From: Ruminococcus sp.
GTDB taxonomy: Bacteria; Bacillota; Clostridia; Oscillospirales; Acutalibacteraceae
DNA: 64,000 nt
Direction: 5' to 3'
Assembly (NCBI GenBank): GCA_045541275.1
Contig: JAZQIX010000014.1
Location: 32,877-96,876, forward strand
The translations under genes were made by a program, and so were the position numbers. This document shows, piece by piece, positions 22,520 through 57,960 of this stretch. Below the pieces are notes generated by a model. It was not told where the DNA came from and ran no database searches. It saw nothing but the letters and a program-made list of their open reading frames with translations. Each line of letters begins with the position of its first letter. Positions within the stretch are counted from its first letter, which is position 1.

Positions 22520-22596
22520 CCGGGTGTAGCGCAGTTTGGTAGCGCGCTTGAATGGGGTTCAAGAGGCCGCAGGTTCGACTCCTGTCACTCGGACCA
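22520..22596 (+). tRNA. tRNA-Pro (anticodon GGG)
   Basis: Hand-folded cloverleaf. Acceptor CCGGGTG/CACTCGG (C1-G72), D arm GCGC-AGTTTGGTA-GCGC, anticodon arm CTTGA-AT GGG GT-TCAAG, T arm GCAGG-TTCGACT-CCTGT, discriminator A and encoded CCA. Confidence 0.9.
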
Positions 22597-22597
22597 T
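22549..22597. repeat. attL: 49-bp direct repeat (3' part of tRNA-Pro)
   Basis: tgaatggggttcaagaggccgcaggttcgactcctgtcactcggaccat is identical base-for-base to 57864-57912. The flanking bases differ on both sides. Confidence 0.9.
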
Positions 22598-22600
22598 CTA

Positions 22601-22647
22601 AAAGTCTTGAAAAACGCAGTGTTAATGCGGGTTTCAAGACTTTTTTA
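22601..22647 (+). terminator. island-borne intrinsic terminator now serving the tRNA
   Basis: AAAGTCTTGAAA...TTTCAAGACTTTTTT (12-bp stem, T-run), directly after attL. Confidence 0.5.
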
Positions 22648-38964: not shown

Positions 38965-38992
38965 TATACATTAAACCTTTCAATAATAATCC

Positions 38993-39237: not shown

Positions 39238-39269
39238 TATAAACTTACAATAACAATAAATTATTGTAT
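39238..39269. repeat. lox/dif-like palindromic site C (CTTACAATAA-CAATAAA-TTATTGTATG core)
   Basis: 32/32 identical to the reverse complement of site D. It lies 66 bp upstream of the 39336 start. Confidence 0.8.
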
Positions 39270-39335
39270 GATAATAAGGGATCAAAAATATCATATACGA
39301 GCAGTTGTAAAAAGGGAAAGGAACAATGATTCACA

Positions 39336-40433
39336 ATGAATAAGATGGACATATATGAACGAGCAGTTCAAAGTATTATAGACTATAGTTCTGGAGATGT
39401 AACATCATGCTTGATGAAAGAATATGCGATTAAAGGAATGTATAATCTGCTATCTTGCTTGGATAACCTTGGTATGTGTGGGAAAGAGACAAAGTTAATT
39501 GCATTGCCCGATTTTACTTTTTCAAGAAACGATAAAAGATTTAACTCTTTTTTTCCTTACGGCTCTATAATACATATCGATACATCTGGTGAAATGTTTA
39601 TACCGCTGGGATTTAGACCCAATTGTTGTGGTATCACGATGCTTGAATTAACGAATACAGATGCAAACATTGATAAAATTAAAACAAATCTATACACTCT
39701 TGCAAAACTTGATTTTGGTATTGCAAGCGACGATTTGAATAGAGGCAATCATTTCATTGGTATATATGAAAATCAATCTACATCTCAAATGTATGCAATT
39801 ATTCATGGGTCATTTGACTTTGTTAAATCGGGACATAACGACATCCCCGGATTGTATATTGATAAAACAAATTATTGGGACGATAAATTATGTATATATA
39901 GTGAAAACGATGTCTACTTTCCTTATCTCGTTAGTGACAATGCGGTTCACTATTACAAGGCATACTTACAACATGAGCAGACAACAAAAGAACTACGTAG
40001 TAAAATTGCTTACCATCTGTTCCCGAATAGCAAAATTATTTTTAATGAAACGCATGAGGGGTTTTACCAACATAACACCATTACACTTGGAGCATATATA
40101 AAAAACACTTCTTTTACTGCACCCATTATGCTTTCAGCAGAATCAGATTTATCCATAATTAATGTAAATCGTCCGTTAACGGATATTTCATCAAACATAT
40201 ACGCCTGTCCACATGGAGGAGGTTATTCCTTAAAATATATAGTTAATGGACTGTATAATATTGACACTCATATTTATAAGTTGCAGTTTGAAAACAAGGC
40301 TGTGATGGAGACAACTGATATTCGCAAACTAATATATGATTATAGAACTAATACTGATCTTATTTGGTGTAAACATCATGCCTTCGGTAATATTACAAAT
40401 AAATACTCTACTGTATACAATCTTAAACTATAA
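39336..40433 (+). CDS. divergent RtcB-like (RNA ligase fold) protein
   Basis: RtcB motifs occur in the right order: ALPDFTFS (MPDxH position, His lost), RPNCCGIT (DxGCG), NRGNHFIGIY (GNHFIE), IIHGSFDF (HSGSRG), YQHNT (HHNY), ACPHGGGYS (HGAGR nucleophile His). Confidence 0.5.
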   Translation: MNKMDIYERAVQSIIDYSSGDVTSCLMKEYAIKGMYNLLSCLDNLGMCGKETKLIALPDFTFSRNDKRFNSFFPYGSIIHIDTSGEMFIPLGFRPNCCGITMLELTNTDANIDKIKTNLYTLAKLDFGIASDDLNRGNHFIGIYENQSTSQMYAIIHGSFDFVKSGHNDIPGLYIDKTNYWDDKLCIYSENDVYFPYLVSDNAVHYYKAYLQHEQTTKELRSKIAYHLFPNSKIIFNETHEGFYQHNTITLGAYIKNTSFTAPIMLSAESDLSIINVNRPLTDISSNIYACPHGGGYSLKYIVNGLYNIDTHIYKLQFENKAVMETTDIRKLIYDYRTNTDLIWCKHHAFGNITNKYSTVYNLKL

Positions 40434-43058
40434 CATCATCAGAAATGTAGATAACGCCTGTTTGTGATTGATTAAATCATCAATCATATCTACATTTATA
40501 TTGTTTGTAATAGTTTCATAAAGATAGGATTTATATAATTCCGTCATTTCTGCTATGTGATTCTCGGTAGATGATAATGCTTTAACCGCAGCTTTTTTTA
40601 ATTCAAAAAGGTTATATTCTTCGCACAGATCTATGATAGTTTTTAAACGATGTGCAAGATGCAATTTGCTTGCTTGTTTTATACAGAGTTTCAGAATACA
40701 TAATGCTTGTGTTGTTTGGTGAGCAGCCAAAAGTGCATAGGCATAGGTAATGCCTGTAGCAACTTCTTCTTTCTTTAAATTAAGTTGTTGTGCTTTTTTA
40801 TATGCTTCTTCGCCCCAGTATACAGTTTGAGGAATATCATGCATTTTATAATAGATTTGCGAATGCAATTTCATAGAGAATGTAAGGCCTCGTTGAGTGT
40901 TTAGAGATTTCTTTATTTCTATGCTTTTATCATTATACGCAATTGCAACATCATAATCTTCATTTCCCAACGCACATTTACTCAATCGATAATATGCAAA
41001 TGCTCGACGTTTGATGCTGACAAAATATCTTGTGTCCATTAATTGAGTAAGTGTTTGCATAGCGTTTTTGAACAATCCTGCTTTTTCCTCAATTATACAA
41101 ATTCTATGGATAGCTTTAGCCGAAAGATTTGATAAATTATTGCGTATAGCTAAATTGAATATATAATAATAAATTTCAACTGCTATTTTCATTTCACCAA
41201 CGACATAATAAGTTCGTCCAATTATAAAGAGAATTTGTAAATATAAATCTATAGGATAATGCTGATATTCAAAAATATTATCATAAAAATCCTTGAGTAA
41301 ATTTGTAAAATCACATTGAAAGTATCTCAATCTCAAATTCAAGTAATTCCACATATGGTAATCTTCGTTTGATTTGTCAATAATATCTTTTGTTATATTA
41401 ATGTAATTACTCAATAAATCATATTCAGATTTTCTTTCTAATAATATCATCTTTTTGATTAGAATAGATAACGAGTTTCTTTTGTTGAGTTTTTCTCGTT
41501 CTTGAAGAGATTCCAATAACATCACATCGTAGCCTCTGCTCAAAAGAAAATCAAATTTTTCTTTCAAAAGAGCATCATATTCATTACTTCTATTAGTTTT
41601 ACAACACAAATTCATAAGATCTATATATAAAAGTGAGTTTTCACTAGCACACAATTCTATTATATCGAATGCTTCTTCGGGAATTAAATGTAATAAATCT
41701 ACGATGTACTTCTTGTACATATCGTGCAGGACTATTACTTCACCTTCTAATTTTGTCAATCTTTTTTGAGTTAATTTTTCGAGAGCTGATCTATAGCTAT
41801 TTCTTTCTAATAGTTTTATCGGCAATGGAACTCTCGAGAATGCTAAAGAATAGAGCAGAGCTTTTTCTTTGTTTTCCATTAAAGAAATTAACGAATCAAA
41901 ATATGATGATAATCCTTCACAATTAACACACTCAAAGTTTGTTGGCAATATTTCTGCTAGACCCGGTAACCCATCGGATCTTTTTACGATTTCCTCCATT
42001 TCCTCTTCATTAAGAGCTTCATTATAAGATAATGCAATTTCTCTGATATGTTGCGGCGATAGGGGTTCGACATCCACAAATACAATTTTATTATTAACTT
42101 TCAAATCATGAATGTTAAAAATATTAAACCATCCAAGTAAATGCATCTTACTTCGTTCTATCTCGAGTAATTGAATTAATAATTCAATATACTGATTACT
42201 GTTACATTTGTGGATATCATCAATAAAAAACACGCAATCATAATTTGATAGCATAGTTTTAATTATATTAATAAGCGACGCAGTTAGATAATTACCATGA
42301 CTATTTAAATATTCATTTAATTCGTTTCTTTTTAATACACAAGCAAAAAATGTACCAAGTGATTCCAGAAAATTCTTTATTTGACACTCGCCATCTTGCA
42401 TTAATATTCTATGCCAAAATACAAAATACCCTTTGCTGTAATAGTGATGTGCAATGTTTTTTGCGAGTTGTGTTTTGCCAACACAAGATGGACCAACAAG
42501 ATAAAAACAATGTGTGTCAGATTCTAACAATAATTTCTTCTCTATTTTTCTATTAACCAAATTATGATTTGATGGTAAAATGCGAGATGTATATTCTAAT
42601 TCATATGAATGTTCTACGATGTTTAACAAGGTGTAAATGTGGTTTTTTAGCTCGAAAAACAATTGCTCTGTGTCTGTGTGATTAAGGCAAGTTATATACC
42701 TTTCTAACGAGGTTTCCTCTTCCCAAGCTACATTTAGTTTATATTGTTTTGAAATTGATAAAATGTAATCTTTAGTTGCAGGAGTAAGATAGGTATTCGT
42801 CCAAATGTAAAATAAATCAGGTTTTGTGGAAACAGCCCAATTTAACGATTCACATATATTTTTTTGTTTTATTGAAGATTTATGGTTTTTACACTCTACA
42901 ATAACCGTCTTAGATACACCGTTATATTCATATATTGCCACAATATCTTTGCCACGATCCGAACCACCTCTATAGAATTCTATGCTCTTTGGATGGGTTC
43001 TTTCTAAAATTGAAAAAACCAAATTTTCAAATTCATTCCCTTTTTGAGTTGTATTCAT
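40428..43058 (-). CDS. Mrr-like PD-(D/E)xK nuclease + STAND/AAA P-loop NTPase + TPR-like repeats (Avs-like defence protein)
   Basis: N-terminus GNEFENLVFSIL...GGSDRGKDIVA...VIVECKNHK (Mrr_cat pattern). Walker A YLVGPSCVGKTQLA, Walker B CVFFIDDIHK. The C-terminal about 400 aa are helical-repeat/TPR-like. Confidence 0.7.
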   Translation of the reverse strand: MNTTQKGNEFENLVFSILERTHPKSIEFYRGGSDRGKDIVAIYEYNGVSKTVIVECKNHKSSIKQKNICESLNWAVSTKPDLFYIWTNTYLTPATKDYILSISKQYKLNVAWEEETSLERYITCLNHTDTEQLFFELKNHIYTLLNIVEHSYELEYTSRILPSNHNLVNRKIEKKLLLESDTHCFYLVGPSCVGKTQLAKNIAHHYYSKGYFVFWHRILMQDGECQIKNFLESLGTFFACVLKRNELNEYLNSHGNYLTASLINIIKTMLSNYDCVFFIDDIHKCNSNQYIELLIQLLEIERSKMHLLGWFNIFNIHDLKVNNKIVFVDVEPLSPQHIREIALSYNEALNEEEMEEIVKRSDGLPGLAEILPTNFECVNCEGLSSYFDSLISLMENKEKALLYSLAFSRVPLPIKLLERNSYRSALEKLTQKRLTKLEGEVIVLHDMYKKYIVDLLHLIPEEAFDIIELCASENSLLYIDLMNLCCKTNRSNEYDALLKEKFDFLLSRGYDVMLLESLQEREKLNKRNSLSILIKKMILLERKSEYDLLSNYINITKDIIDKSNEDYHMWNYLNLRLRYFQCDFTNLLKDFYDNIFEYQHYPIDLYLQILFIIGRTYYVVGEMKIAVEIYYYIFNLAIRNNLSNLSAKAIHRICIIEEKAGLFKNAMQTLTQLMDTRYFVSIKRRAFAYYRLSKCALGNEDYDVAIAYNDKSIEIKKSLNTQRGLTFSMKLHSQIYYKMHDIPQTVYWGEEAYKKAQQLNLKKEEVATGITYAYALLAAHQTTQALCILKLCIKQASKLHLAHRLKTIIDLCEEYNLFELKKAAVKALSSTENHIAEMTELYKSYLYETITNNINVDMIDDLINHKQALSTFLMML

Positions 43059-43143
43059 AACAAACCTCCTAGGTGTATCATATCTTTTTAAAAAACCTCA
43101 AGTAACATGTATCGGTTATTTGATTATTGCATCCATTATTACA

Positions 43144-43175
43144 ATACAATAATTTATTGTTATTGTAAGTTTATA
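43144..43175. repeat. lox/dif-like palindromic site D
   Basis: Reverse complement of site C, 32/32. It lies 86 bp upstream of the 43058 start (minus) and about 60 bp upstream of the recombinase start (plus). Confidence 0.8.
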
Positions 43176-43236
43176 TTTATACTTACACCTCGAAATTTGA
43201 TAAAATAAGAAAAATAATATTTCAATGAGGTGTATT

Positions 43237-44148
43237 ATGAAAAATTTAAACAATCTAATTACTGAGTTTATTAATATAGCTCAGTCAACTAAAAATCTGT
43301 CTACTAAGACCACTACTGCCTACAAGTCTGATTTACACGATTTTGCAAACTATGTAGAAAGTAAATCAATAGGCGAAGACACAATATTAAATTACATACA
43401 AATACTATCTCAAAAAAGGAAGTTGAAAGATAGCACTATAAACAGAAAGCTCATCGTACTTAAAATGTTTTTTCAATTCTTGCAATCTCATAATTACATC
43501 AAGCAAAACTACTTTACTGCACACAATTTCAAGTTCAAACGAGAACGCAAACTTCCAAAAACGATATCCATAAAAGAGTCAAAAAAGCTTTTATCTTACT
43601 CTACAAATCTAACTATCACAGCAAAAAGTGACTTTGAGAAATGGAAATCTATTCGCAACCTAGCTTTGATTGATATACTAATAAGCACCGGAATTAGAAT
43701 TGCAGAAGCTTCCAATATAATGATGGAGGATATTATCACCTCTGAACACACCATACTAATTCATGGTAAGGGACGAAAGCAAAGGCTAATATACATTTCC
43801 TGTTCTCAAACATGGCAAAACTTAAATTTATGGATAAAATACAGAAACAAGCGAGTAACCACATCAAATAATCTGTTTGTCAACCGATACGGAGAACAAA
43901 TCAGTATTCACGGAATCGAATACATTTACAACTCACTTAAAACGGGAGCAAAAATCAATTTAAACTCAACACCACATTATTTAAGACATACCTTTGCAAC
44001 CAATCTTCTTGCAAATGGTGCTGATCTTCGTTCTGTTCAAGAAATATTAGGTCATAGTAGCGTATCTACAACTGAAATATATACTGAGGTTACTACAAAA
44101 CGAAAGATGCAAGTACTAAATAGATACAACTATAGAAATAAATTATAA
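43237..44148 (+). CDS. XerC/XerD-like tyrosine recombinase (complete catalytic set)
   Basis: [12 protein letters not shown] (R), [10 protein letters not shown] (K), [12 protein letters not shown] (H-x-x-R), [16 protein letters not shown] (H, Y). The start is either 43225 or 43237. Confidence 0.85.
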
Positions 44149-44162
44149 AACATACGGAAGCA

Positions 44163-45092
44163 TTAATCTAATTCTTCTTTATTTTTTATAACAACTACCA
44201 ACTCAGAATACTCTTCTTTAAACTCTTCAAAGCAAGCATTTACATATTCCTTGTTGGGCACAAAATCATTGCCACTGCTTATTACATTAAACAGTTCGAC
44301 ACCACAGGATGTTAAGAAATATGAATCAATTGATATAGTAGGAGCATTATCATTCTGCGCAATAACGAACACCACTGTATCTTTGTTATGCACAACCAGT
44401 GTCTTATCCGCAGAAAAATCAGTTGCAAGCGAATTATCAATAGATAACAATCCTGCTTCAATCAAAGGAATAATGTGAGTTGAATAAACATACCCTTTTT
44501 CGTCAATTATTTTTTTGCTCCTATGGTTCGAATCGTGAAGCTGATAAAAACCATTTGAATTGATAAAATAGCAATCACCGCTTACTAAAACCAATTGACA
44601 CAACTCGTTAAAAATCTCAGCTTCTTTTTGCGAAATATTTCTGATCACCTCTAATGTCCTCAAAGAAACATTGCCGGGATTTATTATTTCTCCGCATAAT
44701 ACCCTGCTCCACAACTTTTGCAACTCTTCATTACTAATACTTCCTACTGCATCAAAGAAGCGCATAATCCAATCAAAATCAACAGGGTTATCTGACACAG
44801 CTTCAACATTTTCCAAATACTCACTTGCAAAGCCTGCTGTTTTCACAAAATTTTTAAGTTTTGCCACCTCATACAAGGTAAAGGTTTGCTGTTCAAGTAA
44901 TTCTTCTTGCTGTCTTTGCCTGTAAATTTCAACATCAACTTCCGCCTTGCCTTTTTTCAGTGTTATGGTCGGCAGATACAATGTTTTAATCACATCTCCT
45001 ACAACATCTATAAGCTTTGCTAACACAGGAGATGCAGCAACAATCGGCAATCCGGTATTAATTAATTCTATTATCTGATTTTGATCAATCAT
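44163..45092 (-). CDS. DUF2806-like protein
   Basis: DFDWIMRFFDAVGSISNEELQKLWSRVLCGEIINPGNVSLRTLEVIRNISQKEAEIFNEL resembles the DUF2806 core recalled from memory. Start trimmed to the ATG at 45092 (GGAGGA RBS). Confidence 0.45.
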   Translation of the reverse strand: MIDQNQIIELINTGLPIVAASPVLAKLIDVVGDVIKTLYLPTITLKKGKAEVDVEIYRQRQQEELLEQQTFTLYEVAKLKNFVKTAGFASEYLENVEAVSDNPVDFDWIMRFFDAVGSISNEELQKLWSRVLCGEIINPGNVSLRTLEVIRNISQKEAEIFNELCQLVLVSGDCYFINSNGFYQLHDSNHRSKKIIDEKGYVYSTHIIPLIEAGLLSIDNSLATDFSADKTLVVHNKDTVVFVIAQNDNAPTISIDSYFLTSCGVELFNVISSGNDFVPNKEYVNACFEEFKEEYSELVVVIKNKEELD

Positions 45093-45167
45093 ATAATCCT
45101 CCAACAAGAACAATCCATACAAATTATATACATAATTTTATCATTCATTGTAGAACTTTTCACCAAT

Positions 45168-45202
45168 TTGGCATAGATGGTAGAAAAAATGGCGTAGTTG
45201 GT
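45168..45202 (-). promoter_or_regulatory. candidate LytTR-type binding site: 14-bp direct repeat with 21-bp phasing
   Basis: Minus strand reads TACCAACTACGCCA-N7-TACCATCTATGCCA (12/14 identical, start-to-start 21 bp), then 16 nt and TACAAT. The 45-nt block resembles 55606-55649 upstream of agrB. Confidence 0.4.
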
Positions 45203-45229
45203 AAATTCTGTCGATTGCTAATAACACAC

Positions 45230-45260
45230 AAAGACTCCATCGGATAGCGATGGAGTCTTT
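45230..45260. terminator. hairpin terminator downstream of the dGTPase-like gene
   Basis: AAAGACTCCATCG-GATA-GCGATGGAGTCTTT. Confidence 0.5.
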
Positions 45261-45359
45261 GTAATATTATTAATCTTTAAGCACACATATTGATAAACGC
45301 AAATTAACTATATTTTATCTGTTAATACTATAAGAGTCCACTTTTGTCCCTTAGCAAAA

Positions 45360-46586
45360 TCAGAAATACTCATGATACTGCAGTTTACCAATCAACTCAT
45401 CATTGATATGCAGATGCTTGCAAATATCAATAAAGTAGTCATCAGACATACTCGCGATAAAATCAGTAACAATTTCATTGGGATCTGCAATGATTGCTCT
45501 TGTAGCCTTATCACGATAGCAATCCCCTAATATGGATTTGTTAAGGTGATGAGCAAACACAGGAGAAGTATAATCCCTGTTTTTAACATCTTCTACCAAT
45601 CGTTCATAAAGTCCATGCATTAATGGTCTGATTATTTCATAATAAGGTACATTCAATTCTGTATCGCCATATATCTTATAGTTTTCTCTGATCAAATCCT
45701 CAAAATCATCAAAAACTTCTTTATCCATATTCAATGTAGGGGAATCAATACTATTCTTAATAATGTTAATAACAATATTGGAAATAATATCACTATTGCT
45801 TGTACCAATTAATCGCTTTTCCTTAAACTCCTCGGGAATCATTCCTGCTCTAAGCATATCCTGTCTATCCTTGCCTGCATAAGCAATTCTGTCGCTTATT
45901 CTTACAACACAGCCTTCAAGGGTATTAGGACGAAGCTTTTTGTGATAATTATTATCCAGATAGCAGTTCTCCAGAATTTCATCAAACTCCTCAAATGTGC
46001 TCAAGCTTGACGGTGAATACTCCTTATATCCTTTTTCACCGTTGTGCGATAAGATTCCGCTAAGTGTCTGCAACGAGAGGTTAGAGTCCAGAATATATCG
46101 AAACAATCTGGCACTATGTACATTATGATTAAAGTATCTTACTGGGTTGCCTGATTCTTCACAACCTTTCTGATAACATTCACTCAGAAACTCCTCTCCT
46201 TTGTGACCGAAAGGAGTGTGCCCCATATCGTGTCCAAGAGCAATTGCTTCGATGAGATCAAGATTGAGCTTCAACGCACGGCCGATTGTTCTGGCAATCT
46301 TTGATACAAACTGAACGTGCAAAGCTCTTCTGGTAATATCATCGTTCTTATAAAACGAAAACACCTGAGTCTTATCAGCATATCGATTGTATAGTGGATT
46401 ATGAATAATACAATCAATATCATAAGAATACTGAGGACGTATAATTCCATGTCTGGGACCTCTGGCCTTTCGTATTGTAGCTTCATCGTTTCTAGATGCA
46501 TAAACAGATAAATTATCGTCACACATCAGGTTAACAGATTCCAAATACTTCTTCTCACTCTCGCTAAAAGAAAAATAATCACTCAT
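45360..46586 (-). CDS. dGTPase-like dNTP triphosphohydrolase (HD domain)
   Basis: ALGHDMGHTPFGHKGEEF HD signature and Dgt-family length and layout (408 aa). Confidence 0.8.
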   Translation of the reverse strand: MSDYFSFSESEKKYLESVNLMCDDNLSVYASRNDEATIRKARGPRHGIIRPQYSYDIDCIIHNPLYNRYADKTQVFSFYKNDDITRRALHVQFVSKIARTIGRALKLNLDLIEAIALGHDMGHTPFGHKGEEFLSECYQKGCEESGNPVRYFNHNVHSARLFRYILDSNLSLQTLSGILSHNGEKGYKEYSPSSLSTFEEFDEILENCYLDNNYHKKLRPNTLEGCVVRISDRIAYAGKDRQDMLRAGMIPEEFKEKRLIGTSNSDIISNIVINIIKNSIDSPTLNMDKEVFDDFEDLIRENYKIYGDTELNVPYYEIIRPLMHGLYERLVEDVKNRDYTSPVFAHHLNKSILGDCYRDKATRAIIADPNEIVTDFIASMSDDYFIDICKHLHINDELIGKLQYHEYF

Positions 46587-47214
46587 TTCGCTTTTCCTTC
46601 TTTCTATTTGGATTTTTTGAAAATTGAATTAAGTTTCTGTGCTTTGTTCTTCTGTGAATATATAGAATATCAGTTAATATAATACAATAATAATCTAAAT
46701 CCACTAGTATTATAATATCACTTTATTCGACAAATAATAGACATTTGGCACTGTTGGTCGATATTTGGCTTTAATTTGTTGCTTTTATCAACAGCACCAC
46801 AGAAACCATGTAATAAAACATAAAGAGATATGGTTAACCACAAAGCTACAATCGAGTTGCTTTTTATTAGTTTTACAATCCTATAGAATCACAACATTAC
46901 CACGGAAAGTTAAGTTATAGTAACAATACGAAGGAATTGCTGTAGTTGATATAAAATACGCTAAGCATGCAGGTCTACCATATGCATCATAACTAAAATC
47001 AAATTTTGTAATCCTCTTATATTCAAAAAACATAAAACCCAACTTGTCTCAACCTTTTGTTTTACCATTCATTTATGACTAGGTAAAAACTCCTTGCCTA
47101 ATTTGGCAAAAACGATACAAAAAAGGTTTGATTCATTAGATTCGCATACAATTCATATTTTCATTCATTCCTTTGTATTACAACATAAAACAATAAAAAT
47201 CCACTGGCTTTGCC

Positions 47215-48637: not shown

Positions 48638-51600
48638 TCAATACGGAGATAATGAATTCAGTTGTTGTAATATAGAACGCATTATTCCCAAAGCCATAAC
48701 CACACCATACTTTTTCTCTGTTTTACTTTGACCACTATAGCAACAGATACTAAAAACACCATACAGAACATTATAGTACACATGAGAATTCAGTTTTCTG
48801 TGTATTCCTGTTTTTAGGATTATTATATTCATAGAATTATTAATAGAATATCCTGCGTTTATATAAATCTTTCTAACTTCCTGCGCTTTTGTGCTCCAAC
48901 TAATATTAGACCGAGGTACGATATGATGATACTCATACGGCTTTAGAGAATGATACTTCGCCACCGCATTTGTAAGCTCGAACAACAGTAATATAGTTCT
49001 TCTCAACCCGTTAAGTTCTGTATTTATAGCATTCTTTATTGCTGAGACAATAGTTTTTGAATATCGCTTACCAAACACATAAACAACATATGCTACTGCC
49101 ACAGTTATAATCGTAGCCAACACAGCTTTGAGAACACACAACAATGTAGCCTCTGCATAATAATTGCCGCAAAGATCAATATTGTTAACAGGATTATTAC
49201 CACAATACGAAAATAAATTATAGTCTACTATTTTTCCATTTGCTCCTAAAAAAGCTGTATCATCAGGATTAATAAATCTGCCAATCTCAGGATCATAATA
49301 ACGACTTCGGAGATAATAGAAACCTGTTTCATCATCGTATACATAGCCACGATAACGGAACGGATTGAGAAGTGCTATTGAAGTCTCAGATGTTATCTCT
49401 GCACCTGTGGAGTTTGTGATACTTAGGAGCTTGCCGTATGCATCATACTCATAGTTTGCAATTACTGTACCATGGTCAGACACTATCTTTACTATATCAC
49501 CCTGAAGATTCTTAACATAGTAATATCTTGTTGCAACATAGTTAGTATAGTGAGCTACTGACTCAGGCTGACCCTCAGTATCGTAATAGAACACAAGCTG
49601 AGTATCTCCGCGTTTGAGAGAAGTTAGATTATTGTTACCATCATAGAAATACTGAGTAACAGTTCCATCACTATTCTTCTCGGTACGCATACCATTGGCA
49701 TCATAGGTATAGCTTATTGTCTTATTATCCTTTGTCAGGGTTGCAAGCTCACGGCCGTTCTGCCAAGTCATTGTGATGTCATCACGATAGGTTAAGGGAT
49801 TACCCACTGTATCATAGGTAATAGCTTCACCGTTATACTCGGTTAGCAAGTCTTTCCACTCGGAATCGCCATAAGTATAAGATATATCACTTGCAACAGT
49901 TGTCGGATATCCGTAAGTTGGATGAAGATTTTGCACTAATTCCCTGACAATGTTTCCGCCATCATCATACGCATAGGTGGTATATGTGTTATTCACATAG
50001 TTGTTAACGTTTTTGAGCTGGTTTAAGCTATCATAAGTGTAAACATACTTGGTAACTCCGTTTTGGTATTCTCTTCTTATGTTACCGTTTGCATCGTACT
50101 CATAGGAGTAAGTTATAATATCCTTGCTACCACGCTTAACAGATATGCTGTCTACAAGTTCGGTTGTCGCATTATCATCGCTACCTGCCACATAGGTATA
50201 ATCAGTAGTAAATGCAGTAAGATTATTGGGAGAAGTCGACTTGTTTGTGATTCTGCCAAGAGAATCAAGCGCAACTGTAGTATTCCAACCGTCATTGTCA
50301 ACGTAAGAGTTATCGTCCTCATCTACTCCCTGTGTAACCACACGGGTAACATTACCTACAGAGGATACTGTAATCTGATTGCCGTCTGCATCTGTGGAGT
50401 CATTGGAATATGCCACCACACTGCCGTCACTCTGATATGTAGTTGTACCAAGTGCTAAGCCGCTTACATTATACCAATAGTCAGTTATTCTGCCGCTTGC
50501 ATTATCAATTATACGAGCGACATTGCCCTTCTTATTATACACATACTCGGCTAAAACATCTTCTTCGTTGCTGATTCGGATGATATTACCCAAATCGTCA
50601 TAGGTATAGTTAATCACATCACCATTACCGAATGTGGATGCTACAAGGCTGTAGTTATCATTTCCGTATGTGTTAGTAACGAGGGTACGGCTACCAATAG
50701 AGGTAGCTGTGCTATTACCGTAACTGTCATATGCAAAACTATAATTAAAGCCATTGTGGCTAATAGCAGTAAGATTACCTGTATCAGCATAGGTAAAGGT
50801 GTTGGTCACATCACCGCTGGTTTCAGACAGAACATTGCCAAAGGCATCGTAGGTATAAGAGGTCACGTTGCCCTTTGCATCTGTCACACTGTTAACTCTG
50901 CCGTTGTTTGCATCTACTGAGTATGTAACAGTATTACCGCGAGAATCAGTCTCAGAAGTTACATAATTTCCTGTAGAATCATAAACAGTACTTGTTGTAA
51001 TGTGAGTTTTTGAAGAATCAATGGTATCCTCACCATCAGTTGAAGGGATAACTGTACCCTGTGAGGAAGTCAGAACATTGCCATAACTATCATATGTGTA
51101 TGCATAGCCGTCATAAGGCTCTGTGCTGACAGTTTCCTCTGTTGTTTCTGTTGATTCTTCCGTTTCTTCTTCAGACTCTTCGACAGTATACATATTATCC
51201 TCAAAGTTGAGCATACAGTCATAAGCAGTCATTATACCAACATTATAATCGTAGACAAAGGAGAATGCAACTGTGGAAATCACAACATTACTCTTTTCAG
51301 GAGTAACAAACAGATTTACAGATTGCTTTACGGTTGTTGCCGCATTGAAGTTCTGCAGATGTTCCTCAGTGGTACCATCAGCATAATTGATAGTAAGTTT
51401 TATACCGAATGCTCTTTCATCATTATTCAGAGGCACAGAGGTTGCACTTGCAGTACCTGTGATATTAAAGGATACATTTGCTTTATTAATGCTTACAGTC
51501 TGAGTTCTAGTTCTAGTAACTTCTGTATTACCACTTAAATATCTTGATCCGTTCCAACTTCCGCTACCAGAAAAGTCACTGTTGTTAAGAATGTTAAAAT

Positions 51601-54600
51601 CATTCATACAGCTTGCAGACTCACACTGTAAACAGTCAAACCAAGCTGTACCTGTTGCATTCTGAATACCAACGCACACCTTAACAGTAGCGGTTGTATC
51701 GGGAACATTAACGGTAACACTGAACCTCTGCCAGTTATTTGTACCGAGAATAGTATAGCTCTCTTCTTCCTCAACAACTGCACCGCTTGCATCAAGACAC
51801 TGAATCTTTAAGAACGCTCCTGATTTACATTCGCTGAGAGGCGGTGTGAGTTCACTCGTCTTTACATATGAGGAGAAGGTTACATCCCCACCTGCAAGCT
51901 CAGTTGCAGAAATACTCTGAGTTGCCATAGTAATCTGAGAGTTATCTGTATTATTAATCTTAATAGATCTACTACCCAGATGTTGAACTTTCTCTCCGTT
52001 CACTTCTTCTGTTGAAGTATCGTAGGTGAAAGTTCCTGTTGATTCTGTATCGCTGTACTCAGCAACATATCCGCTTGCACTTGTTAAGTAAGAATTAGTA
52101 ATATAATTCTTCGTATAAGAATCTGAGCCCGTTGACAGATAATACCCCTCTGATCCACCAGTATTCTCCAGGTGGCCATCCGCATTGAGAACAGAAACAG
52201 TTCTTCCGTAGTTATCGAAAGTGTAAGTTTCACTTCTTCCCTGCTTGTCTTCTATCTTAGTAGTGTTATCGGTATTATAGTTCATCTGCAACCAGTTTCC
52301 GGATATCTGGTCTGTTATTTTACTAACAGTTCTATCGCTATTATAGGAATAAACCACCTTTGTACCGCAAGTGGACTGAACTGTGTTGATTTGCTTGGTT
52401 GTAACATCATAATAGAATGTAACTGTTTCTCTATCACTGTACTCAATCTTAGAAATCCAATTTTGAGTTTCTGAGCTTGTCCCATATGTAAAGGAAACAG
52501 TTGAACTGTCAGGAGAAGTAATCTTGCTTACCCTTAACTCACCTGTTACAGAATTTGTAGAATATGAGATTATATATTCTCTTCCCGCTCCGTCAGTAAT
52601 CTTAGTAAGGTTTCCGTCTGTGTATGTGTATGTGATTGTGTTGTTGTAATCGTCTACTTCCGATAATATCTTACCACCATTTGCAGGAAGTTCAAAATAT
52701 GCTTTAGTACCAGTTCCCGCATCAAGAATTATGTTTGTTGAAGTCTTTGTAATTGTGTAGCCGAATTCATTTTCATCGGTCCAACTTTCAACATAATCTT
52801 CTGCAGTTGCTTCTTCCTCAGTAACTTCAACCTTTGTAAAATAGTGGTTTGTTCCATCCTCATCAGTGTAGATATAATCGTAACCAAGCGCCTGCAATTC
52901 TTCGCTTGGCACACTTATATATCGATTAAACGACATCTGCCACCCGCAACCTGTAGGCGATCCGTTGCTGAAAAGTTCATCGAATAGTACGCTGTTGTAT
53001 GTGGCAGAAATTGACACAGGCATTCTGGAGCCGCTTTCCTGAACAAGTTCCTGTCGAAGCACTAATGTACCTAAAGCATCAGATACATAACCTGTTCCGT
53101 AGAGTCCTGTACCATGAGTACGGTAAGTTAAATCAGTCTCTGTTCCAACATAGTTCTTATATGTAATTGTAAACATAGGCTTGCAATCGGAGTAGTAACA
53201 AGCATGGCCGCCAAGCTCAATGCCAGCTAAATCATCTGTACTCAACATCACACCATAGTTTGAAGAAGGATCATTGTACCAATCCTTCATCAACTTTGTA
53301 ATATCAAAGGTTATAGCATCCAAACTATCTGCAGTTACTTTGGCATAATCAACAACAGTACTATCAAATGTAACATTATTGTATGTGGCAGTTGCAGTGG
53401 TCCAGTCTGATGTAACCTTATATGCTTTCAACTGCATAGCAAGTGAAGGCTGTGACATAGGATATACATTCAAGGAAGCGTTTACAATATAGTCACCATT
53501 ACTAAGTTCTGTCAGCTCATTTAGCTTAAACAATCCATTATTAACATTGCTATCAGTTTTAGACACATAGGCATTTGTGTGCTGGTTCATAATTTTATTG
53601 GGGTTAGCTGAACTGATATATGCACTAGATGTTTCAGTATAGCTTTCTCCATATTCAACACTAGGGTCAATGGTTACAGGATATACTCGTGATTTATCCT
53701 TAAGCCAATCCTTGTCAGCTGTGAGTTTTACAGACAACTTCCCCTTGTTATTCTGGAGAATTTTAAGCTCTACAGCTTCGCTCATCTCACCCTCTGCATC
53801 CACCATATATGGCGCAGAAATAGTGTATACAACTACTCCGTCAGCATCTTTGAGTTCAATTGTATGACTGTCTACACTTTCAGTTACAAGATCACCAATA
53901 TTGTATTCTATTTTGAAAACATTCTTTGTGTTGGAGGATTTGAGAATCAGATTCTCCTTAACTCCTACTGTTGAGTTAATAACCTCTAAGTCCACATTGT
54001 TGTATATATTTTCATACAATACTGTACTACTTAGATTTGGAAGGACCATAAAAGCATCGTTTCCAACAAGTTCTTCTGAGTTACTTTTCTGTTCCTGAGC
54101 TTCAACAATGTTTGCTCCCGAATATCCCCAGGAGATAGTATGGTTATCCCTTGTAATTTCTATAAGTTTCGCCTTGCCTGACTTCTTAAAATGAGAAACC
54201 TTTGAGTTACTCTTTTTGTTCGTAAAAGTATCCTCTGTTTCTTCAATAGTTCTGAGGCTATATGCGGAAACTTCGTCTGCAGTTACTTCATCCTCTGTTG
54301 CTTCTGAAATTGTCACCTGTGATGAAACCAGTGAATTATCAAAATCAACATATTCTCCGTTTGCATCTTTATAATGCACAGGCACAGCATACTGAGCGGC
54401 GATGGTTGTGCCTGCATCAGTAATGAAGTGCTTTGTATATTCATCACGTTTTGATGTATCTTCGCCAATAATATTTCCTTCGGATGTTGCATCTTCTTGC
54501 TGTATTGATTCTGAATCAGCTAAACCTTCAACCTCATCAGGGGTTGCTGTAGCAGCTACCTGTACAGGCAGAGTAAACGATATCAATACAACTAAAATAA

Positions 54601-54640
54601 TTGACAAAACAGATATCGTAATTTTTCTGAATTTACTCAT
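48638..54640 (-). CDS. RHS/YD-repeat polymorphic toxin with DNRLRE-like N-terminal domain and C-terminal TM + AHH/HNH-like nuclease tip
   Basis: Signal peptide (MSKFRKITISVLSIILVVLISFTLPVQVAA), many YxYDxxGN YD repeats, RHS core PFRYRGYVYDDETGFYYLRSRYYDPEIGRFINPDD and boundary NNPVNNIDLCG. The 175-aa tip has a hydrophobic helix and YEYHHIVPRS...NIIILKTGIHRKLNSH. Start trimmed to the ATG at 54640 (AAAGGAGAA RBS). Confidence 0.9.
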   Translation of the reverse strand: MSKFRKITISVLSIILVVLISFTLPVQVAATATPDEVEGLADSESIQQEDATSEGNIIGEDTSKRDEYTKHFITDAGTTIAAQYAVPVHYKDANGEYVDFDNSLVSSQVTISEATEDEVTADEVSAYSLRTIEETEDTFTNKKSNSKVSHFKKSGKAKLIEITRDNHTISWGYSGANIVEAQEQKSNSEELVGNDAFMVLPNLSSTVLYENIYNNVDLEVINSTVGVKENLILKSSNTKNVFKIEYNIGDLVTESVDSHTIELKDADGVVVYTISAPYMVDAEGEMSEAVELKILQNNKGKLSVKLTADKDWLKDKSRVYPVTIDPSVEYGESYTETSSAYISSANPNKIMNQHTNAYVSKTDSNVNNGLFKLNELTELSNGDYIVNASLNVYPMSQPSLAMQLKAYKVTSDWTTATATYNNVTFDSTVVDYAKVTADSLDAITFDITKLMKDWYNDPSSNYGVMLSTDDLAGIELGGHACYYSDCKPMFTITYKNYVGTETDLTYRTHGTGLYGTGYVSDALGTLVLRQELVQESGSRMPVSISATYNSVLFDELFSNGSPTGCGWQMSFNRYISVPSEELQALGYDYIYTDEDGTNHYFTKVEVTEEEATAEDYVESWTDENEFGYTITKTSTNIILDAGTGTKAYFELPANGGKILSEVDDYNNTITYTYTDGNLTKITDGAGREYIISYSTNSVTGELRVSKITSPDSSTVSFTYGTSSETQNWISKIEYSDRETVTFYYDVTTKQINTVQSTCGTKVVYSYNSDRTVSKITDQISGNWLQMNYNTDNTTKIEDKQGRSETYTFDNYGRTVSVLNADGHLENTGGSEGYYLSTGSDSYTKNYITNSYLTSASGYVAEYSDTESTGTFTYDTSTEEVNGEKVQHLGSRSIKINNTDNSQITMATQSISATELAGGDVTFSSYVKTSELTPPLSECKSGAFLKIQCLDASGAVVEEEESYTILGTNNWQRFSVTVNVPDTTATVKVCVGIQNATGTAWFDCLQCESASCMNDFNILNNSDFSGSGSWNGSRYLSGNTEVTRTRTQTVSINKANVSFNITGTASATSVPLNNDERAFGIKLTINYADGTTEEHLQNFNAATTVKQSVNLFVTPEKSNVVISTVAFSFVYDYNVGIMTAYDCMLNFEDNMYTVEESEEETEESTETTEETVSTEPYDGYAYTYDSYGNVLTSSQGTVIPSTDGEDTIDSSKTHITTSTVYDSTGNYVTSETDSRGNTVTYSVDANNGRVNSVTDAKGNVTSYTYDAFGNVLSETSGDVTNTFTYADTGNLTAISHNGFNYSFAYDSYGNSTATSIGSRTLVTNTYGNDNYSLVASTFGNGDVINYTYDDLGNIIRISNEEDVLAEYVYNKKGNVARIIDNASGRITDYWYNVSGLALGTTTYQSDGSVVAYSNDSTDADGNQITVSSVGNVTRVVTQGVDEDDNSYVDNDGWNTTVALDSLGRITNKSTSPNNLTAFTTDYTYVAGSDDNATTELVDSISVKRGSKDIITYSYEYDANGNIRREYQNGVTKYVYTYDSLNQLKNVNNYVNNTYTTYAYDDGGNIVRELVQNLHPTYGYPTTVASDISYTYGDSEWKDLLTEYNGEAITYDTVGNPLTYRDDITMTWQNGRELATLTKDNKTISYTYDANGMRTEKNSDGTVTQYFYDGNNNLTSLKRGDTQLVFYYDTEGQPESVAHYTNYVATRYYYVKNLQGDIVKIVSDHGTVIANYEYDAYGKLLSITNSTGAEITSETSIALLNPFRYRGYVYDDETGFYYLRSRYYDPEIGRFINPDDTAFLGANGKIVDYNLFSYCGNNPVNNIDLCGNYYAEATLLCVLKAVLATIITVAVAYVVYVFGKRYSKTIVSAIKNAINTELNGLRRTILLLFELTNAVAKYHSLKPYEYHHIVPRSNISWSTKAQEVRKIYINAGYSINNSMNIIILKTGIHRKLNSHVYYNVLYGVFSICCYSGQSKTEKKYGVVMALGIMRSILQQLNSLSPY

Positions 54641-54820
54641 TACAATTCTCCTTTCGACATACAAAATAAAAAGCGAGACATAACTATGCTCAGCACAGTT
54701 GCCCGCTTCTCTTTGGACAACTGCTGTCGTCCATAAATAGAAATTATGCTTTTTTGGGGGTGCTCCTGCCTTGGCGAGAAAATCGTAGAGAAATATACCA
54801 AGGCAGGATTATTAACAATC

Positions 54821-54961
54821 TTATTTGCGTAAAAGCTTTTTTAGATTGTTAGGCTCTTTTGGCTGATGGATTCCCCACCAAGATGCACTACCACAAGCGC
54901 TCTTTGCTGCCATTTTTGCAATCTTTGCAACAACATCAGCAGTTGTCTTTTTAAGTTTCAT
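54821..54961 (-). CDS. agrD: AgrD-like cyclic autoinducing-peptide precursor (46 aa; below ORF-track cutoff)
   Basis: Hand translation gives MKLKKTTADVVAKIAKMAAKSACGSASWWGIHQPKEPNNLKKLLRK. It has an amphipathic leader, a central Cys and an HQPKEP...KKL tail. The ATG is 2 nt after the agrB stop, with an AAAGGAGAA RBS. Confidence 0.7.
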   Translation of the reverse strand: MKLKKTTADVVAKIAKMAAKSACGSASWWGIHQPKEPNNLKKLLRK

Positions 54962-54963
54962 AA

Positions 54964-55545
54964 TCATTTCTCCTTTCTCAGTTTATTTTTTATTAGTCCG
55001 AAAACCATATAGATACTTGAAATAAAGTCCGTAACAATTATTATTTCTAATCTAAACCATCTGTTACACAACAACACAATTGCAATATGTATGATTAAAA
55101 TCCCCAAAGAAACATATCGAAACTTCAACCTATCTTTTTGCTCTATCTCTTTATTGGGATGACTCACAGGAGAGAATACTGCCGTAATAATAAAAGATAT
55201 TATTATCATCATCCCTAAAATCACATTGCAAGATGTAGTGTGAATAATTATATCTTTAAAAATAACTGCAACAATGAATGTAATTACAGTAGTAACATTA
55301 CACGCAACATAGGAATCACAGTGCAGTCCACCTGTAAACTGACGAAGTATTATAAAAGCCAGTAAAAACAGCACTCCACTCTCAAACACACCTAAAATAC
55401 AACTTGTCACTAAAACAAGAACTGCCCCTATAAGCGACGAGAGAAAAACTTTTACTCCATACACATAAACAGGTAGCATTTCATCTTCGAAGCATTTTTG
55501 ACGCAATAAAAAATCTGCTATACGCTCAGGCAAAGAATTAAGCAT
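54964..55545 (-). CDS. agrB: AgrB-family peptide-processing membrane protease
   Basis: 193 aa, polytopic. RQFTGGLHCDSYVAC matches the AgrB catalytic His/Cys region. Confidence 0.8.
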   Translation of the reverse strand: MLNSLPERIADFLLRQKCFEDEMLPVYVYGVKVFLSSLIGAVLVLVTSCILGVFESGVLFLLAFIILRQFTGGLHCDSYVACNVTTVITFIVAVIFKDIIIHTTSCNVILGMMIIISFIITAVFSPVSHPNKEIEQKDRLKFRYVSLGILIIHIAIVLLCNRWFRLEIIIVTDFISSIYMVFGLIKNKLRKEK

Positions 55546-55609
55546 ATCATCATACCCTTGTTTATCTTTGTCTTTAATATAGCAGATTTAAATATTATTT
55601 TGTTCAAAT

Positions 55610-55644
55610 TGGCGTACTTTGTAGTTTTTTGGACGCGGTTGGTA
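55610..55644 (-). promoter_or_regulatory. candidate LytTR-type box upstream of agrBD
   Basis: Minus strand reads TACCAACCGCGTCCA-A6-CTACAAAGTACGCCA in the histidine kinase-agrB intergenic region. Shares GTTGGTAAATT, TTGGC.TA and GTAG blocks with 45164-45207. Confidence 0.4.
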
Positions 55645-55651: not shown

Positions 55652-56977
55652 TTATCTTTTTCCTCTTTCAAGCATAATGCTAACATCGAAAATGTTATCA
55701 TTCTCAGAAAAAGATAAGTTTCCATTGTACTTTTTCACGATTTGCTTGACAATTTTAAGTCCATGCCCATGAAATCTTTTATCAGATTTTGTAGTTTCAA
55801 GTTCGGGATTTCTATAAATCACCGAACCTGATATACTATTCTTTACAGAAAACATATAATAATTATCTTTTTCAAATATGGTAATCTGTAAAAACCTATC
55901 TGACTTTAATTTATGCAAGGCATCAAATGCATTATCTATAAGGTTTCCCAGTAAGGAAATCAGGTCAGACTCATCTATATCTACAAGATTAGTCTTAATC
56001 GTATAACTAAATGCCACCTGATTATCAATACTCTTTTTATATGCCATATTAAGCAGTGCATTCAAATAAATGTTGTCTGTACTGAATATAGCCGGTACAT
56101 CACTTAGTTCACTCTCTACATCTTCACACATTTTCTGAGCTTCCTTTATACGACCTGATCGTAGGAGTTCCCTTATGCAAAACAGTTTATTCTTCATCTC
56201 ATGCTTTACACGCGATATATCCTCAATATAATTGCTTTGATTTACTATCTCTGTTTTATAAAGTTCCTGCTCCTTTACCATCATAGAATTAATTGCACTG
56301 ATCTCTGCCGATTTACCGATATGGTGCATTAAAGAAAACATCGCGAACGCTATAACAATTGCAATTATTACAATACACCCCAAATAAATCCTATTAAGTT
56401 CTGATGTTTTGTAGTCAGATAGCACCGCTGTTGCTAAAAATGTAATTGTCATTGTAAGCACAGGAATAACAAAACATGTAACTATATCTGTTGACTTTTT
56501 AAGATTTATCTTATTCTTATAAATCCGAACAATAAGATATAGAATGAAAAAATATGTCAGATTTGCAATTATCACATATATGTATCTATAAACTGTACTT
56601 TCTGTTACAACCTGTTCAACATTTTTATTAAACACAACAGACACAAAAGTAGTATAAATCATTGCTACGCACATCAATAATAAAAATGAAAGTATCGGCA
56701 AGAATATTTTCATATACACATTACCTTTGTGACACACAATAGAAAAGGGAATCATTATCAATAAATTGGCAACTATCTCAATATCAGCAATAAAGGAGAA
56801 GCAAGAATTAATTACCGTAATCGTTATAAACAACAACAAAACCACAGATGCGCAAATCATCAAATTTATAGACTTCTTAAATTTAGGAGTAAAAAACGAA
56901 TTACAAAACAACACAAAAGCAATCCCCTGAAACAAATTAATACTAAGATTAAATATTATATCAAAAGTTTCACTCAT
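55652..56977 (-). CDS. AgrC-like membrane sensor histidine kinase (GHKL)
   Basis: About 6 N-terminal TM helices, H-box SRVKHEMKNKL, and GNLIDNAFDA and HGHGLKIVKQIV ATP-lid motifs. Confidence 0.8.
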   Translation of the reverse strand: MSETFDIIFNLSINLFQGIAFVLFCNSFFTPKFKKSINLMICASVVLLLFITITVINSCFSFIADIEIVANLLIMIPFSIVCHKGNVYMKIFLPILSFLLLMCVAMIYTTFVSVVFNKNVEQVVTESTVYRYIYVIIANLTYFFILYLIVRIYKNKINLKKSTDIVTCFVIPVLTMTITFLATAVLSDYKTSELNRIYLGCIVIIAIVIAFAMFSLMHHIGKSAEISAINSMMVKEQELYKTEIVNQSNYIEDISRVKHEMKNKLFCIRELLRSGRIKEAQKMCEDVESELSDVPAIFSTDNIYLNALLNMAYKKSIDNQVAFSYTIKTNLVDIDESDLISLLGNLIDNAFDALHKLKSDRFLQITIFEKDNYYMFSVKNSISGSVIYRNPELETTKSDKRFHGHGLKIVKQIVKKYNGNLSFSENDNIFDVSIMLERGKR

Positions 56978-57662
56978 TTGCCTTCACACTCCATCTAAGA
57001 AATTCATCTTTAACAAATTTCACCTTTTGCCGACTTATAGGTACAACCTTTCCGTTTGTTAGTATTACTTCCTTTGAATTAATCAGTTTGATATATTCCA
57101 TATTTACTATGTATCCTATATGGGTTCTGACAAATCCATACCCATTAAGTAACTCCTCTGTCTCAGATATAGTTTTACGCATAGATATATCACCTGTAAG
57201 GGTATAGAGTATGACATTATGAGATAGTTTTTCAACATATATAATCTCCGAATATCTTACTCTTGTAAGTTCCGAGCTACTCTTTACCGTCAGATACATG
57301 GTACTTTGAGATTCACGGTGTAGTCTGTCGAGGACAATAGGTAAATCCTCCTCAATATTTGATTTTCTGACAAAGCCTAAAGTGTTAGTTGTGTTATAAG
57401 CTTCAAACACTAAATCGTCCCTGTTTGTTACAAACACAATGCTAATCATTTTATCTTTGTACTGTTTTGCAAGTTCCAGACCAGACATTCCGGGCATATC
57501 TATATCAAGAAAGACAACATCATATTTATAACCAGATTCAAGGAATCTTTCTGCAGTAGTAAAAACATCCAGTGACTTAATTGTATCGTTATACATATTC
57601 ACGAATCTGTTTTTGAAAGACTGCGCAAAAATCAAATTATCATCTACAATTGCAATTTTCAT
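56970..57662 (-). CDS. LytTR-family response regulator (AgrA-like)
   Basis: REC domain (MKIAIVDDN, FLDIDMPGMSG) plus a LytTR C-terminal domain (YVEKLSHNVILYT...FVRTHIGYIVN). 8-nt overlap with the kinase gene. Confidence 0.9.
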   Translation of the reverse strand: MKIAIVDDNLIFAQSFKNRFVNMYNDTIKSLDVFTTAERFLESGYKYDVVFLDIDMPGMSGLELAKQYKDKMISIVFVTNRDDLVFEAYNTTNTLGFVRKSNIEEDLPIVLDRLHRESQSTMYLTVKSSSELTRVRYSEIIYVEKLSHNVILYTLTGDISMRKTISETEELLNGYGFVRTHIGYIVNMEYIKLINSKEVILTNGKVVPISRQKVKFVKDEFLRWSVKANE

Positions 57663-57863: not shown

Positions 57864-57912
57864 TGAATGGGGTTCAAGAGGCCGCAGGTTCGACTCCTGT
57901 CACTCGGACCAT
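57864..57912. repeat. attR: 49-bp direct repeat (duplicated 3' part of tRNA-Pro)
   Basis: Identical to 22549-22597. There is no tRNA 5' half upstream of it. Confidence 0.9.
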
Positions 57913-57960
57913 AAAAAACCGCATTGTTAGTCAGGAATGGCTTTACAATGCGGTTTTTTA
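57913..57960 (+). terminator. ancestral tRNA-Pro terminator, now separated from the tRNA by the island
   Basis: AAAAAACCGCATTGT...ACAATGCGGTTTTTT, directly after attR. Confidence 0.6.

Follow-up and report, generated by a model that had tools for sequence, protein, structure and literature searches.

Paired direct-repeat boxes shared by an agrB promoter and a DUF2806 gene promoter on a tRNA-Pro island of Ruminococcus sp.: a candidate LytTR operator

Two similar promoter sites were found in a 64,000-nucleotide stretch of Ruminococcus sp. DNA (GenBank assembly GCA_045541275.1, contig JAZQIX010000014.1, positions 32,877 to 96,876 of the forward strand), here called the window. Site A lies upstream of a gene for a DUF2806 protein, a candidate defence gene, and site B lies between a histidine kinase gene and agrB. 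At both, two 14-bp boxes stand in direct repeat and are followed by an extended -10 element. The boxes are statistically significant, keep a fixed geometry and are associated with LytTR two-component systems in other genomes. From sequence comparison, and with moderate confidence, site A is taken to be an operator for the AgrA-like LytTR regulator encoded on the same genomic island, in an agr circuit with the targets of site B. Quorum control of a defence gene would then depend on two suppositions, that this regulator binds site A and that the gene downstream has a defence function. The elements of the two sites are as follows.

45190..45203, minus strand: distal box of site A, TACCAACTACGCCA
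45189..45183, minus strand: spacer of site A, TTTTTTC, the N7 between the boxes
45169..45182, minus strand: proximal box of site A, TACCATCTATGCCA, 21 bp after the distal box
45135..45143, minus strand: extended -10 element TGATAAAAT, 28 nt past the proximal box, of the proposed DUF2806 promoter
55610..55644, minus strand: site B, TACCAACCGCGTCC-AAAAAAC-TACAAAGTACGCCA, in the 106-bp kinase-agrB spacer
55576..55584, minus strand: extended -10 element TGCTATATT of the agrBD promoter, 28 nt past site B

The two units of site A are identical at 12 of 14 positions and start 21 bp apart, as described in an earlier note on this DNA, with coordinates shifted by one nucleotide (45203..45169 rather than 45202-45168). 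The gap-free alignment of the site A block with the kinase-agrB region that was reported there also holds after a 1-nt shift (55605-55648, not 55606-55649). Identities number 29/44 across the block and 29/38 once the A6/T6 spacer is left out, and the 11-mer claimed for both strong sites is indeed identical in them (AATTTACCAAC; plus strand, GTTGGTAAATT). When either strand of the window is searched with site B, site A comes first (29/38, with the runner-up at 22/38), and none of 300 dinucleotide shuffles reaches 29 (mean maximum 22.4, largest 25). A scan of the window with a position weight matrix (PWM) for dimers at 21-bp spacing recovers only site A (40.2 bits) and site B (35.9 bits), all other positions scoring about 10-11 bits or less. 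Only the boxes and the -10 elements are alike between the two sites; the 28-nt interval between them differs.

Alignment of 13 sites, from the window and from other genomes, shows a single architecture: a 14-bp box, 7 nt, a second 14-bp box, 27-29 nt and a -10 hexamer. The spacing from box to -10 is exactly 28 nt in 10/13 sites, and the -10 is extended by TG (TGnTAnnnT) in 11/13. Sites A and B, and a weaker site C upstream of a dGTPase gene, all fit the 28-nt spacing to an extended -10, and the period is 21 bp at all three and at every related site. The 3' end of the proximal box falls near -41 relative to predicted transcription starts, which leaves about 4 nt to a poor -35 element downstream. 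For the DUF2806 gene, the box-to--10 geometry predicts a start at about 45128, and the site A -10 is also listed by a simple promoter scan (GTGAAA-17-TAAAAT with a preceding TG). In the earlier note, the -10 was a TACAAT that follows the proximal box by 16 nt. That hexamer is present (45152..45147) but was set aside as the operative -10 of the DUF2806 gene, as it would be unique among the sites and only the 28-nt TGATAAAAT fits the geometry of the others; the latter is the more likely -10. With the operative -10 at 28 nt, the proximal box would lie just upstream of the -35 and thus would not occupy the -35 position, where it had previously been placed.

Upstream of site A is one further element of the promoter region.

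45227..45263, minus strand: hairpin of 16 pairs, predicted to terminate the dGTPase transcript upstream of site A

As this hairpin (45263..45227 in the direction of transcription) closes the upstream dGTPase gene, the DUF2806 gene has its own promoter, which the predicted terminator insulates from the upstream gene.

Published AgrA and LytTR sites consist of two imperfect direct repeats, with 9-bp cores 12-13 bp apart and a period of 21-22 bp (PMC5600425), and the AgrA repeats are placed immediately upstream of the -35 (PMC5600425). The window boxes agree with LytTR/AgrA operators in the period of the direct repeat and in its position (PMC5600425, PMC4227749). Agreement with the general LytTR consensus, [TA][AC][CA]GTTN[AG][TG], depends on the strand: the boxes match at 4-7 of the 8 specified positions on the coding strand and, always in one register, at 5-8 of them on the opposite strand (for example GTAGTTGGT), with a full 8/8 for the box ACAGTTGGT of locus L010 (loci in other genomes are given L numbers).

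The presumed binder of the boxes belongs to an agr module, located on the island as follows.

56970..57662, minus strand: AgrA-like response regulator (REC + LytTR; Pfam LytTR 4.1e-18, Response_reg 2.8e-11), presumed to bind the boxes
55652..56977, minus strand: AgrC-like GHKL histidine kinase (Pfam HATPase_c_5 E = 1.7e-27)
54964..55545, minus strand: agrB (Pfam AgrB E = 1.3e-33)
54821..54961, minus strand: agrD, 46 aa, MKLKKTTADVVAKIAKMAAKSACGSASWWGIHQPKEPNNLKKLLRK (TIGR04223, 45.7 bits against a cutoff of 19)
48638..54664, minus strand: RHS-repeat toxin gene, 2008 aa, with an AHH-nuclease-like C-terminus, downstream of agrBD

That the island encodes its own LytTR regulator at 56970-57662, as proposed from the sequence alone, was confirmed with Pfam, as were the kinase and AgrB, and this regulator is the sole LytTR gene in the island. 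The window proteins score far below the cutoffs of the NCBIfam AgrC and AgrA equivalog models; thus the kinase and the regulator are family members and not orthologues. An exact-protein look-up of the regulator gave no match. The genes do not follow the canonical agrBDCA order but run regulator-kinase-(box promoter)-agrB-agrD. A search for terminator-like sites between agrD and the RHS gene (window 54640-54820, minus strand) found none, and at L002 (687-1026), which has no agrBD at this point, a homologous box promoter immediately precedes the RHS leader. On these two grounds, the RHS toxin gene is probably transcribed from the site B promoter by read-through and so is part of the regulon. A hairpin, GGACGACAGCAGTTGTCC, is conserved in both RHS leaders (window and L002).

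The closest public relative is Ruminococcus sp. GCA_045593025.1, a metagenome-assembled genome (MAG) referred to as the sister MAG, which contributes loci L001 and L005. Between the window (54821-57662) and L005 (10001-12841), identity is 98% for the regulator, 72% for the kinase and 55% for AgrB. The two AgrD sequences differ at three residues, including G30T, which follows a WW pair downstream of the conserved cysteine and falls in the presumed mature-peptide region. This pattern of divergence resembles that of the staphylococcal agr specificity groups (pherotypes).

Box pairs were sought in other genomes with a matrix trained only on the four half-sites of the window, for which shuffle maxima average 8.5-9.7 bits. 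The scores were as follows.

L001 (sister MAG), 33.9 bits: a second dimer, upstream of a DACNH-domain gene
L002-L004 (DUF2806 86% identical, regulator 66%), 25.9 bits: upstream of the DUF2806 gene
L002-L004, 21.0 and 20.7 bits: one before a 397-aa gene, and one directly after the regulator gene, before the RHS gene
L005 (sister MAG), 30.7 bits: agrB promoter
L010/L011 (Oscillospiraceae, regulator 40%), 21.2 and 15.6 bits: upstream of the regulator, and after the kinase
L030, 34.5 bits: independent locus

Boxes also directly follow the kinase gene at L008 and L009 (regulators 44-45% identical), those of L008 preceding an ABC transporter. The order regulator-kinase-(box pair)-effector recurs in six regulator lineages, with effectors as varied as agrBD, the RHS toxin, an ABC transporter, a leucine-rich repeat (LRR) surface protein and an open reading frame (ORF) for a 16-aa peptide. 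An arrangement with a cognate regulator like that of the window is seen at L005, L008, L009, L010, L011 and L030. A composite scan for boxes and -10 together across 594 kb of fetched loci places the matches beside LytTR regulator-kinase pairs or before island genes of L001 and L002, with one doubtful exception, in L018; the regulators beside these matches are 40-98% identical to that of the window. No such boxes were found at L006 and L007 (regulators 47% identical) or, the doubtful L018 match excepted, at the more distant LytTR loci L012-L023. A motif-only search of metagenome contigs gave 15 matches. Ten of these look like chance or coding matches, and the other five represent one locus, TACCAAGTATGCCT-N7-TACCAAGTATGCCA, immediately after a LytTR regulator and kinase. 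A motif scan of viral contigs gave four matches, mostly in coding sequence and about the number estimated for chance.

Within the boxes, the 5' half TACCAAS is constant across sites, and the 3' half follows the regulator lineage: GCCA in the window and L030, mostly GCCA-like in L002, TAACA in L010/L011, and CACG, CACT or CACA in L008/L009. Sites A and B carry the same 3'-half variant.

At L030, from human gut, the box promoter after the regulator and kinase (6463-6600) is followed by an ORF of 16 codons that has a good ribosome-binding site (MCRKLSCMVTDFFIIR). The encoded peptide could serve for signalling or as an antimicrobial. Next to it, in convergent orientation, is another complete agr system.

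The third, weaker site of the window has the same layout.

46746..46780, minus strand: site C (weak), AACAAATTAAAGCC-N7-GACCAACAGTGCCA, upstream of the dGTPase gene
46712..46720, minus strand: extended -10 element TGATATTAT, exactly 28 nt past site C

By box score alone, site C is at background level (10.5 bits). The composite scan, whose matrix was trained only on sites outside the window without orthology to A or B, finds three matches and no more in the window, namely A (39.9 bits), B (28.4 bits) and C (13.6 bits). Shuffled sequences yield 0.013 composite matches per window, and 0.3% of shuffles reach 13 bits. Site C is tentatively regarded as a plausible weak operator before the dGTPase gene. 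Two weaker half-matches had been listed in the earlier note; the one before the dGTPase gene (46746-46780) is borne out by the composite scan, but that at 47101-47145 has neither box-score nor composite support in the window scans and overlaps a hairpin (47112..47091).

The genes downstream of sites A and C are listed below.

44163..45092, minus strand: DUF2806 gene, 309 aa, with an ATG at 45092 and a GGAGG ribosome-binding site (Pfam DUF2806 E = 9.7e-32)
45360..46586, minus strand: HD-domain dGTPase gene, a possible weak target (PADLOC dGTPase E = 1.6e-35; NCBIfam dGTPase models also match)

The DUF2806 protein has weak similarity to Abi_alpha, below the cutoff. It has no match in PADLOC v2, PHROGs or a PDB sequence search, and an exact-protein look-up also gave no match. 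Its AlphaFold2 model is a confident one (predicted local distance difference test score, pLDDT, 80.7) and has an alpha-helical N-terminal half and a mixed alpha/beta C-terminal half, with a disordered linker at 41-69. A fold search with the model found no PDB neighbour, and it matches one unnamed phage protein (A0A291AUV8, E = 9e-10). Homologues are found in defence islands and mobile elements, repeatedly beside RHS loci. The setting of the DUF2806 gene is that of a defence island, with dGTPase, SIR2-HerA, Mrr-STAND, TIR, SIR2-STALD and patatin genes among the neighbours. A DUF2806/Abi-alpha-like single-gene anti-phage system, Belisama, has been reported in a preprint (10.1101/2024.07.02.601686). 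The label of defence genes given to this region earlier is right in that the DUF2806 and HD/dGTPase genes are as stated and sit in an island, but the role of the DUF2806 protein comes from context and one preprint, making it a candidate defence gene. With the NCBIfam model for anti-phage dGTPases, the dGTPase reaches 75.8 bits, the cutoff being 400.

One DUF2806 locus carries boxes of another kind. At L043 (DUF2806 58% identical), a LytTR two-component system is divergent from the RHS gene, and a different box, TTTTTTTGY-N12-CACATTTTTGCAA, is found at three promoters including that of the DUF2806 gene (1914-1946, 9874-9906 and 16378-16410; 0.01 expected). An 81-nt promoter module, which contains TACC-type repeats 21 bp apart, is duplicated there before the RHS and peptidase S8 genes (2079-2159 and 12491-12571).

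Sites A and B, the complete agr module, the RHS toxin, the dGTPase and the DUF2806 gene are all contained in a 35.3-kb island of low G+C content at a tRNA-Pro gene, enclosed by 55-nt direct repeats of the attachment (att) type.

22549..22603, plus strand: left att repeat, the 3' part of tRNA-Pro(GGG) 22520-22596
57864..57918, plus strand: right att repeat, 96% identical over 55 nt

In the sister MAG, the same att sequence adjoins the regulator gene (L005 9751-9799). The island also holds two further integrases, an insertion sequence (IS) element, a SIR2-like gene with a HerA-like ATPase (33657-36420) and a gene for an 876-aa Mrr_cat-STAND NTPase (40428-43058). SIR2-like proteins with HerA-like ATPases are a known defence pair. 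No LytTR boxes were found upstream of the SIR2/HerA pair or of the Mrr_cat-STAND gene. The island is a mosaic, with the block 43145-46777 being 98% identical to L001 and the agr module 87% identical to L005.

A 27-bp palindrome, CTTACAATAA-N7-TTATTGTAAG, is present in four copies in the window, against 0.02 expected, and recurs in the relatives.

36425-36451, 38992-39018, 39244-39270 and 43143-43169: palindrome copies in the window
L001 6102-6126 and 8299-8323, L002 11987-12011 and 17124-17148: palindrome copies in relatives

One copy always lies just upstream of a XerC/D-like recombinase gene (43225-44148), which is convergent with the DUF2806 gene. The palindromes flank defence-type genes that vary between strains, and the 98%-conserved L001 block stops at the copy at 43143-43169. 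From their sequence and placement, they look like dif-like or attC-like bounds of exchangeable defence cassettes.

Several observations weigh against site A being an operator of the agr circuit, or limit how far that assignment extends. The boxes lack the GTT core of the LytTR consensus on the coding strand, and their orientation, judged by the better fit on the opposite strand, would be the inverse of that at S. aureus P2. The PWM dimer scan finds no box upstream of the regulator-kinase genes in the window. Boxes before DUF2806 genes are confined to the closest homologues (at least 86% identical) and were not found, as TACCAAC boxes, upstream of homologues that are 54-65% identical (L043-L051); thus, the DUF2806 family as a whole does not share this wiring. 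Conservation at L002 is about 80% across the entire DUF2806 promoter and not confined to the boxes, so that the comparison gives no specific footprint. The boxes of site C differ in the sister strain and fall there below the scan threshold.

The apparent inversion of the boxes relative to the general consensus would also suit a different wiring, in which they are genuine LytTR-type boxes but a LytTR protein from elsewhere binds site A, or the island regulator acts as a repressor. LytTR-only proteins do occur near other DUF2806 genes, for example at L045. However, A and B share the lineage-specific 3' half, and the only LytTR gene of the island is the agr regulator. The boxes also lie about 4 nt upstream of the -35 and clear of the -10 and the start, which is the position of an activator, as for AgrA (PMC5600425). 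Such other wiring is therefore considered unlikely, and activation by the island regulator is preferred.

Slightly less likely again is a portable promoter module, spread by recombination with no regulator-specific function, in which the boxes might be UP-like elements or arm-type sites of a tyrosine recombinase. The mosaic make-up of the island (the 98% L001 block set beside the 87% L005 agr module), the XerC/D-like recombinase next to the DUF2806 gene, the palindromes that flank neighbouring cassettes and the duplication of the 81-nt promoter module in L043 are in keeping with this. Against it, A and B have only the boxes and the -10 in common, and not the 28-nt interval. Box pairs also stand beside LytTR two-component systems without a recombinase nearby (L008, L010 and L030), and the repeats that are associated with the recombinase have a different, palindromic sequence. 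As for mere coincidence in AT-rich intergenic DNA, the region has a G+C content of 30-35% and short T/A-rich spacers are common, but the shuffles never reach the observed match, the three composite matches compare with 0.013 expected, and the boxes recur in independent loci, while viral contigs give only about the chance number of matches, mostly coding. Chance is thus effectively refuted as the source of the A/B resemblance and is rated as highly improbable.

The preferred reading, that the island regulator acts at sites A and B, can be set out as a circuit. AgrB would process AgrD into a secreted peptide, presumably a thiolactone peptide from ...SACGSASWWGIHQP, which at high cell density would activate the AgrC-like kinase, and the kinase would in turn phosphorylate the regulator. 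The regulator would bind the two 14-bp boxes, 21 bp apart, as a tandem pair and, from just upstream of a weak -35, activate the extended -10 promoter 28 nt past the proximal box. Transcription driven from site B would cover agrBD and probably read on into the RHS toxin gene; site A would drive the monocistronic DUF2806 gene; and the degenerate site C may drive the dGTPase gene. Cell density would thereby govern a competition toxin of the island together with one or two candidate anti-phage genes. What we infer is that this particular regulator binds, that it activates rather than represses, that a peptide is the signal and that the DUF2806 protein functions in defence. The proposal of the earlier note that the agr circuit drives the DUF2806 gene, and perhaps the dGTPase gene, is well supported by sequence comparison, with its promoter assignment and one of its weak sites corrected.

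A wider picture may be entertained only tentatively. In it, the tRNA-Pro island carries a polymorphic agr module that uses a distinctive LytTR box to make the RHS toxin and several anti-phage genes respond to cell density, and cassettes exchanged at the dif-like palindromes can bring their own quorum-responsive promoters. The genes so wired might, with similar doubt, be the DUF2806/Belisama-like gene, the dGTPase gene and, in the sister strain, the DACNH gene. If true, this would be element-encoded, density-dependent immunity in Firmicutes. The preferred circuit itself, if it holds, would tie inter-bacterial toxin production and anti-phage immunity to one peptide signal and suggest that defence cassettes can plug into the regulon of a host element via a portable promoter. 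It would also provide a concrete operator (box sequence, spacing and three promoters) for an abundant but poorly studied group of gut Clostridia. Regulons of this LytTR subfamily can be annotated in metagenomes with the composite motif (box-7-box, 28 nt, TGnTAnnnT), which has the specificity for it. No report was found of an agr/LytTR circuit directly driving dedicated defence-island genes, or of a mobile island carrying both such a circuit and its targets.

Among the closest known parallels is the agr system of S. aureus, where P2 and P3 likewise have imperfect direct repeats of about 21 bp just upstream of the -35 (PMC5600425). As in S. aureus, a copy of the site is at the agrB/agrD promoter, in keeping with autoinduction, and the same regulator would control effector promoters; agrB, agrD and agrC are hypervariable between strains, and the regulator is conserved. 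The window differs from S. aureus in its gene order (regulator-kinase-promoter-agrB-agrD, not agrBDCA), in having a box, TACCAAC..GCCA, that lacks the GTT core on the coding strand and fits the consensus better on the opposite one, and in the fixed 28-nt spacing of its sites to an extended -10. Its predicted effectors are the RHS toxin and defence-island genes and not RNAIII, and the whole circuit is on a mobile island at tRNA-Pro.

A second likeness is to the VirR box of the Clostridium perfringens VirSR system, with the consensus CCAnTT-N15-CCAGTTnnnCA (PMC4747519). Both are direct repeats with a 21-bp period and a CCA start (in 3/4 of the window boxes), and both stand upstream of toxin or other effector genes scattered over mobile elements. 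When the two are aligned by hand in the same orientation, the window boxes match 7-8 of the 11 positions of CCAGTTATGCA. They depart from the strict VirR pattern, the corresponding sequences being CCAACT/CCATCT at site A and CCAACC/CAAAGT at site B, and the window regulator is only a distant LytTR relative. VirS responds to an AgrD-derived peptide.

With Belisama, known from Vibrio chromosomal integrons, the target of site A shares a DUF2806 protein with weak Abi_alpha similarity. The likeness is one of family only, and the close relatives of the window protein are, unlike Belisama, often beside RHS toxin loci.

Quorum control of immunity is known in Gram-negatives, where CRISPR-Cas is under LuxR-type regulators and CBASS under HapR (PMC12988980). 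The predicted circuit would resemble these in raising immunity genes at high cell density. It differs in its predicted signal, a cyclic peptide of the agr type relayed by a LytTR regulator, in its host, a gut Ruminococcus, and in that the quorum-sensing module lies on the same mobile island as its predicted targets. The mechanism is thus of a known kind, that of a LytTR/agr regulon, and what is new is its mobile-island setting, its predicted targets, and the unusual sequence, orientation and spacing of its boxes.

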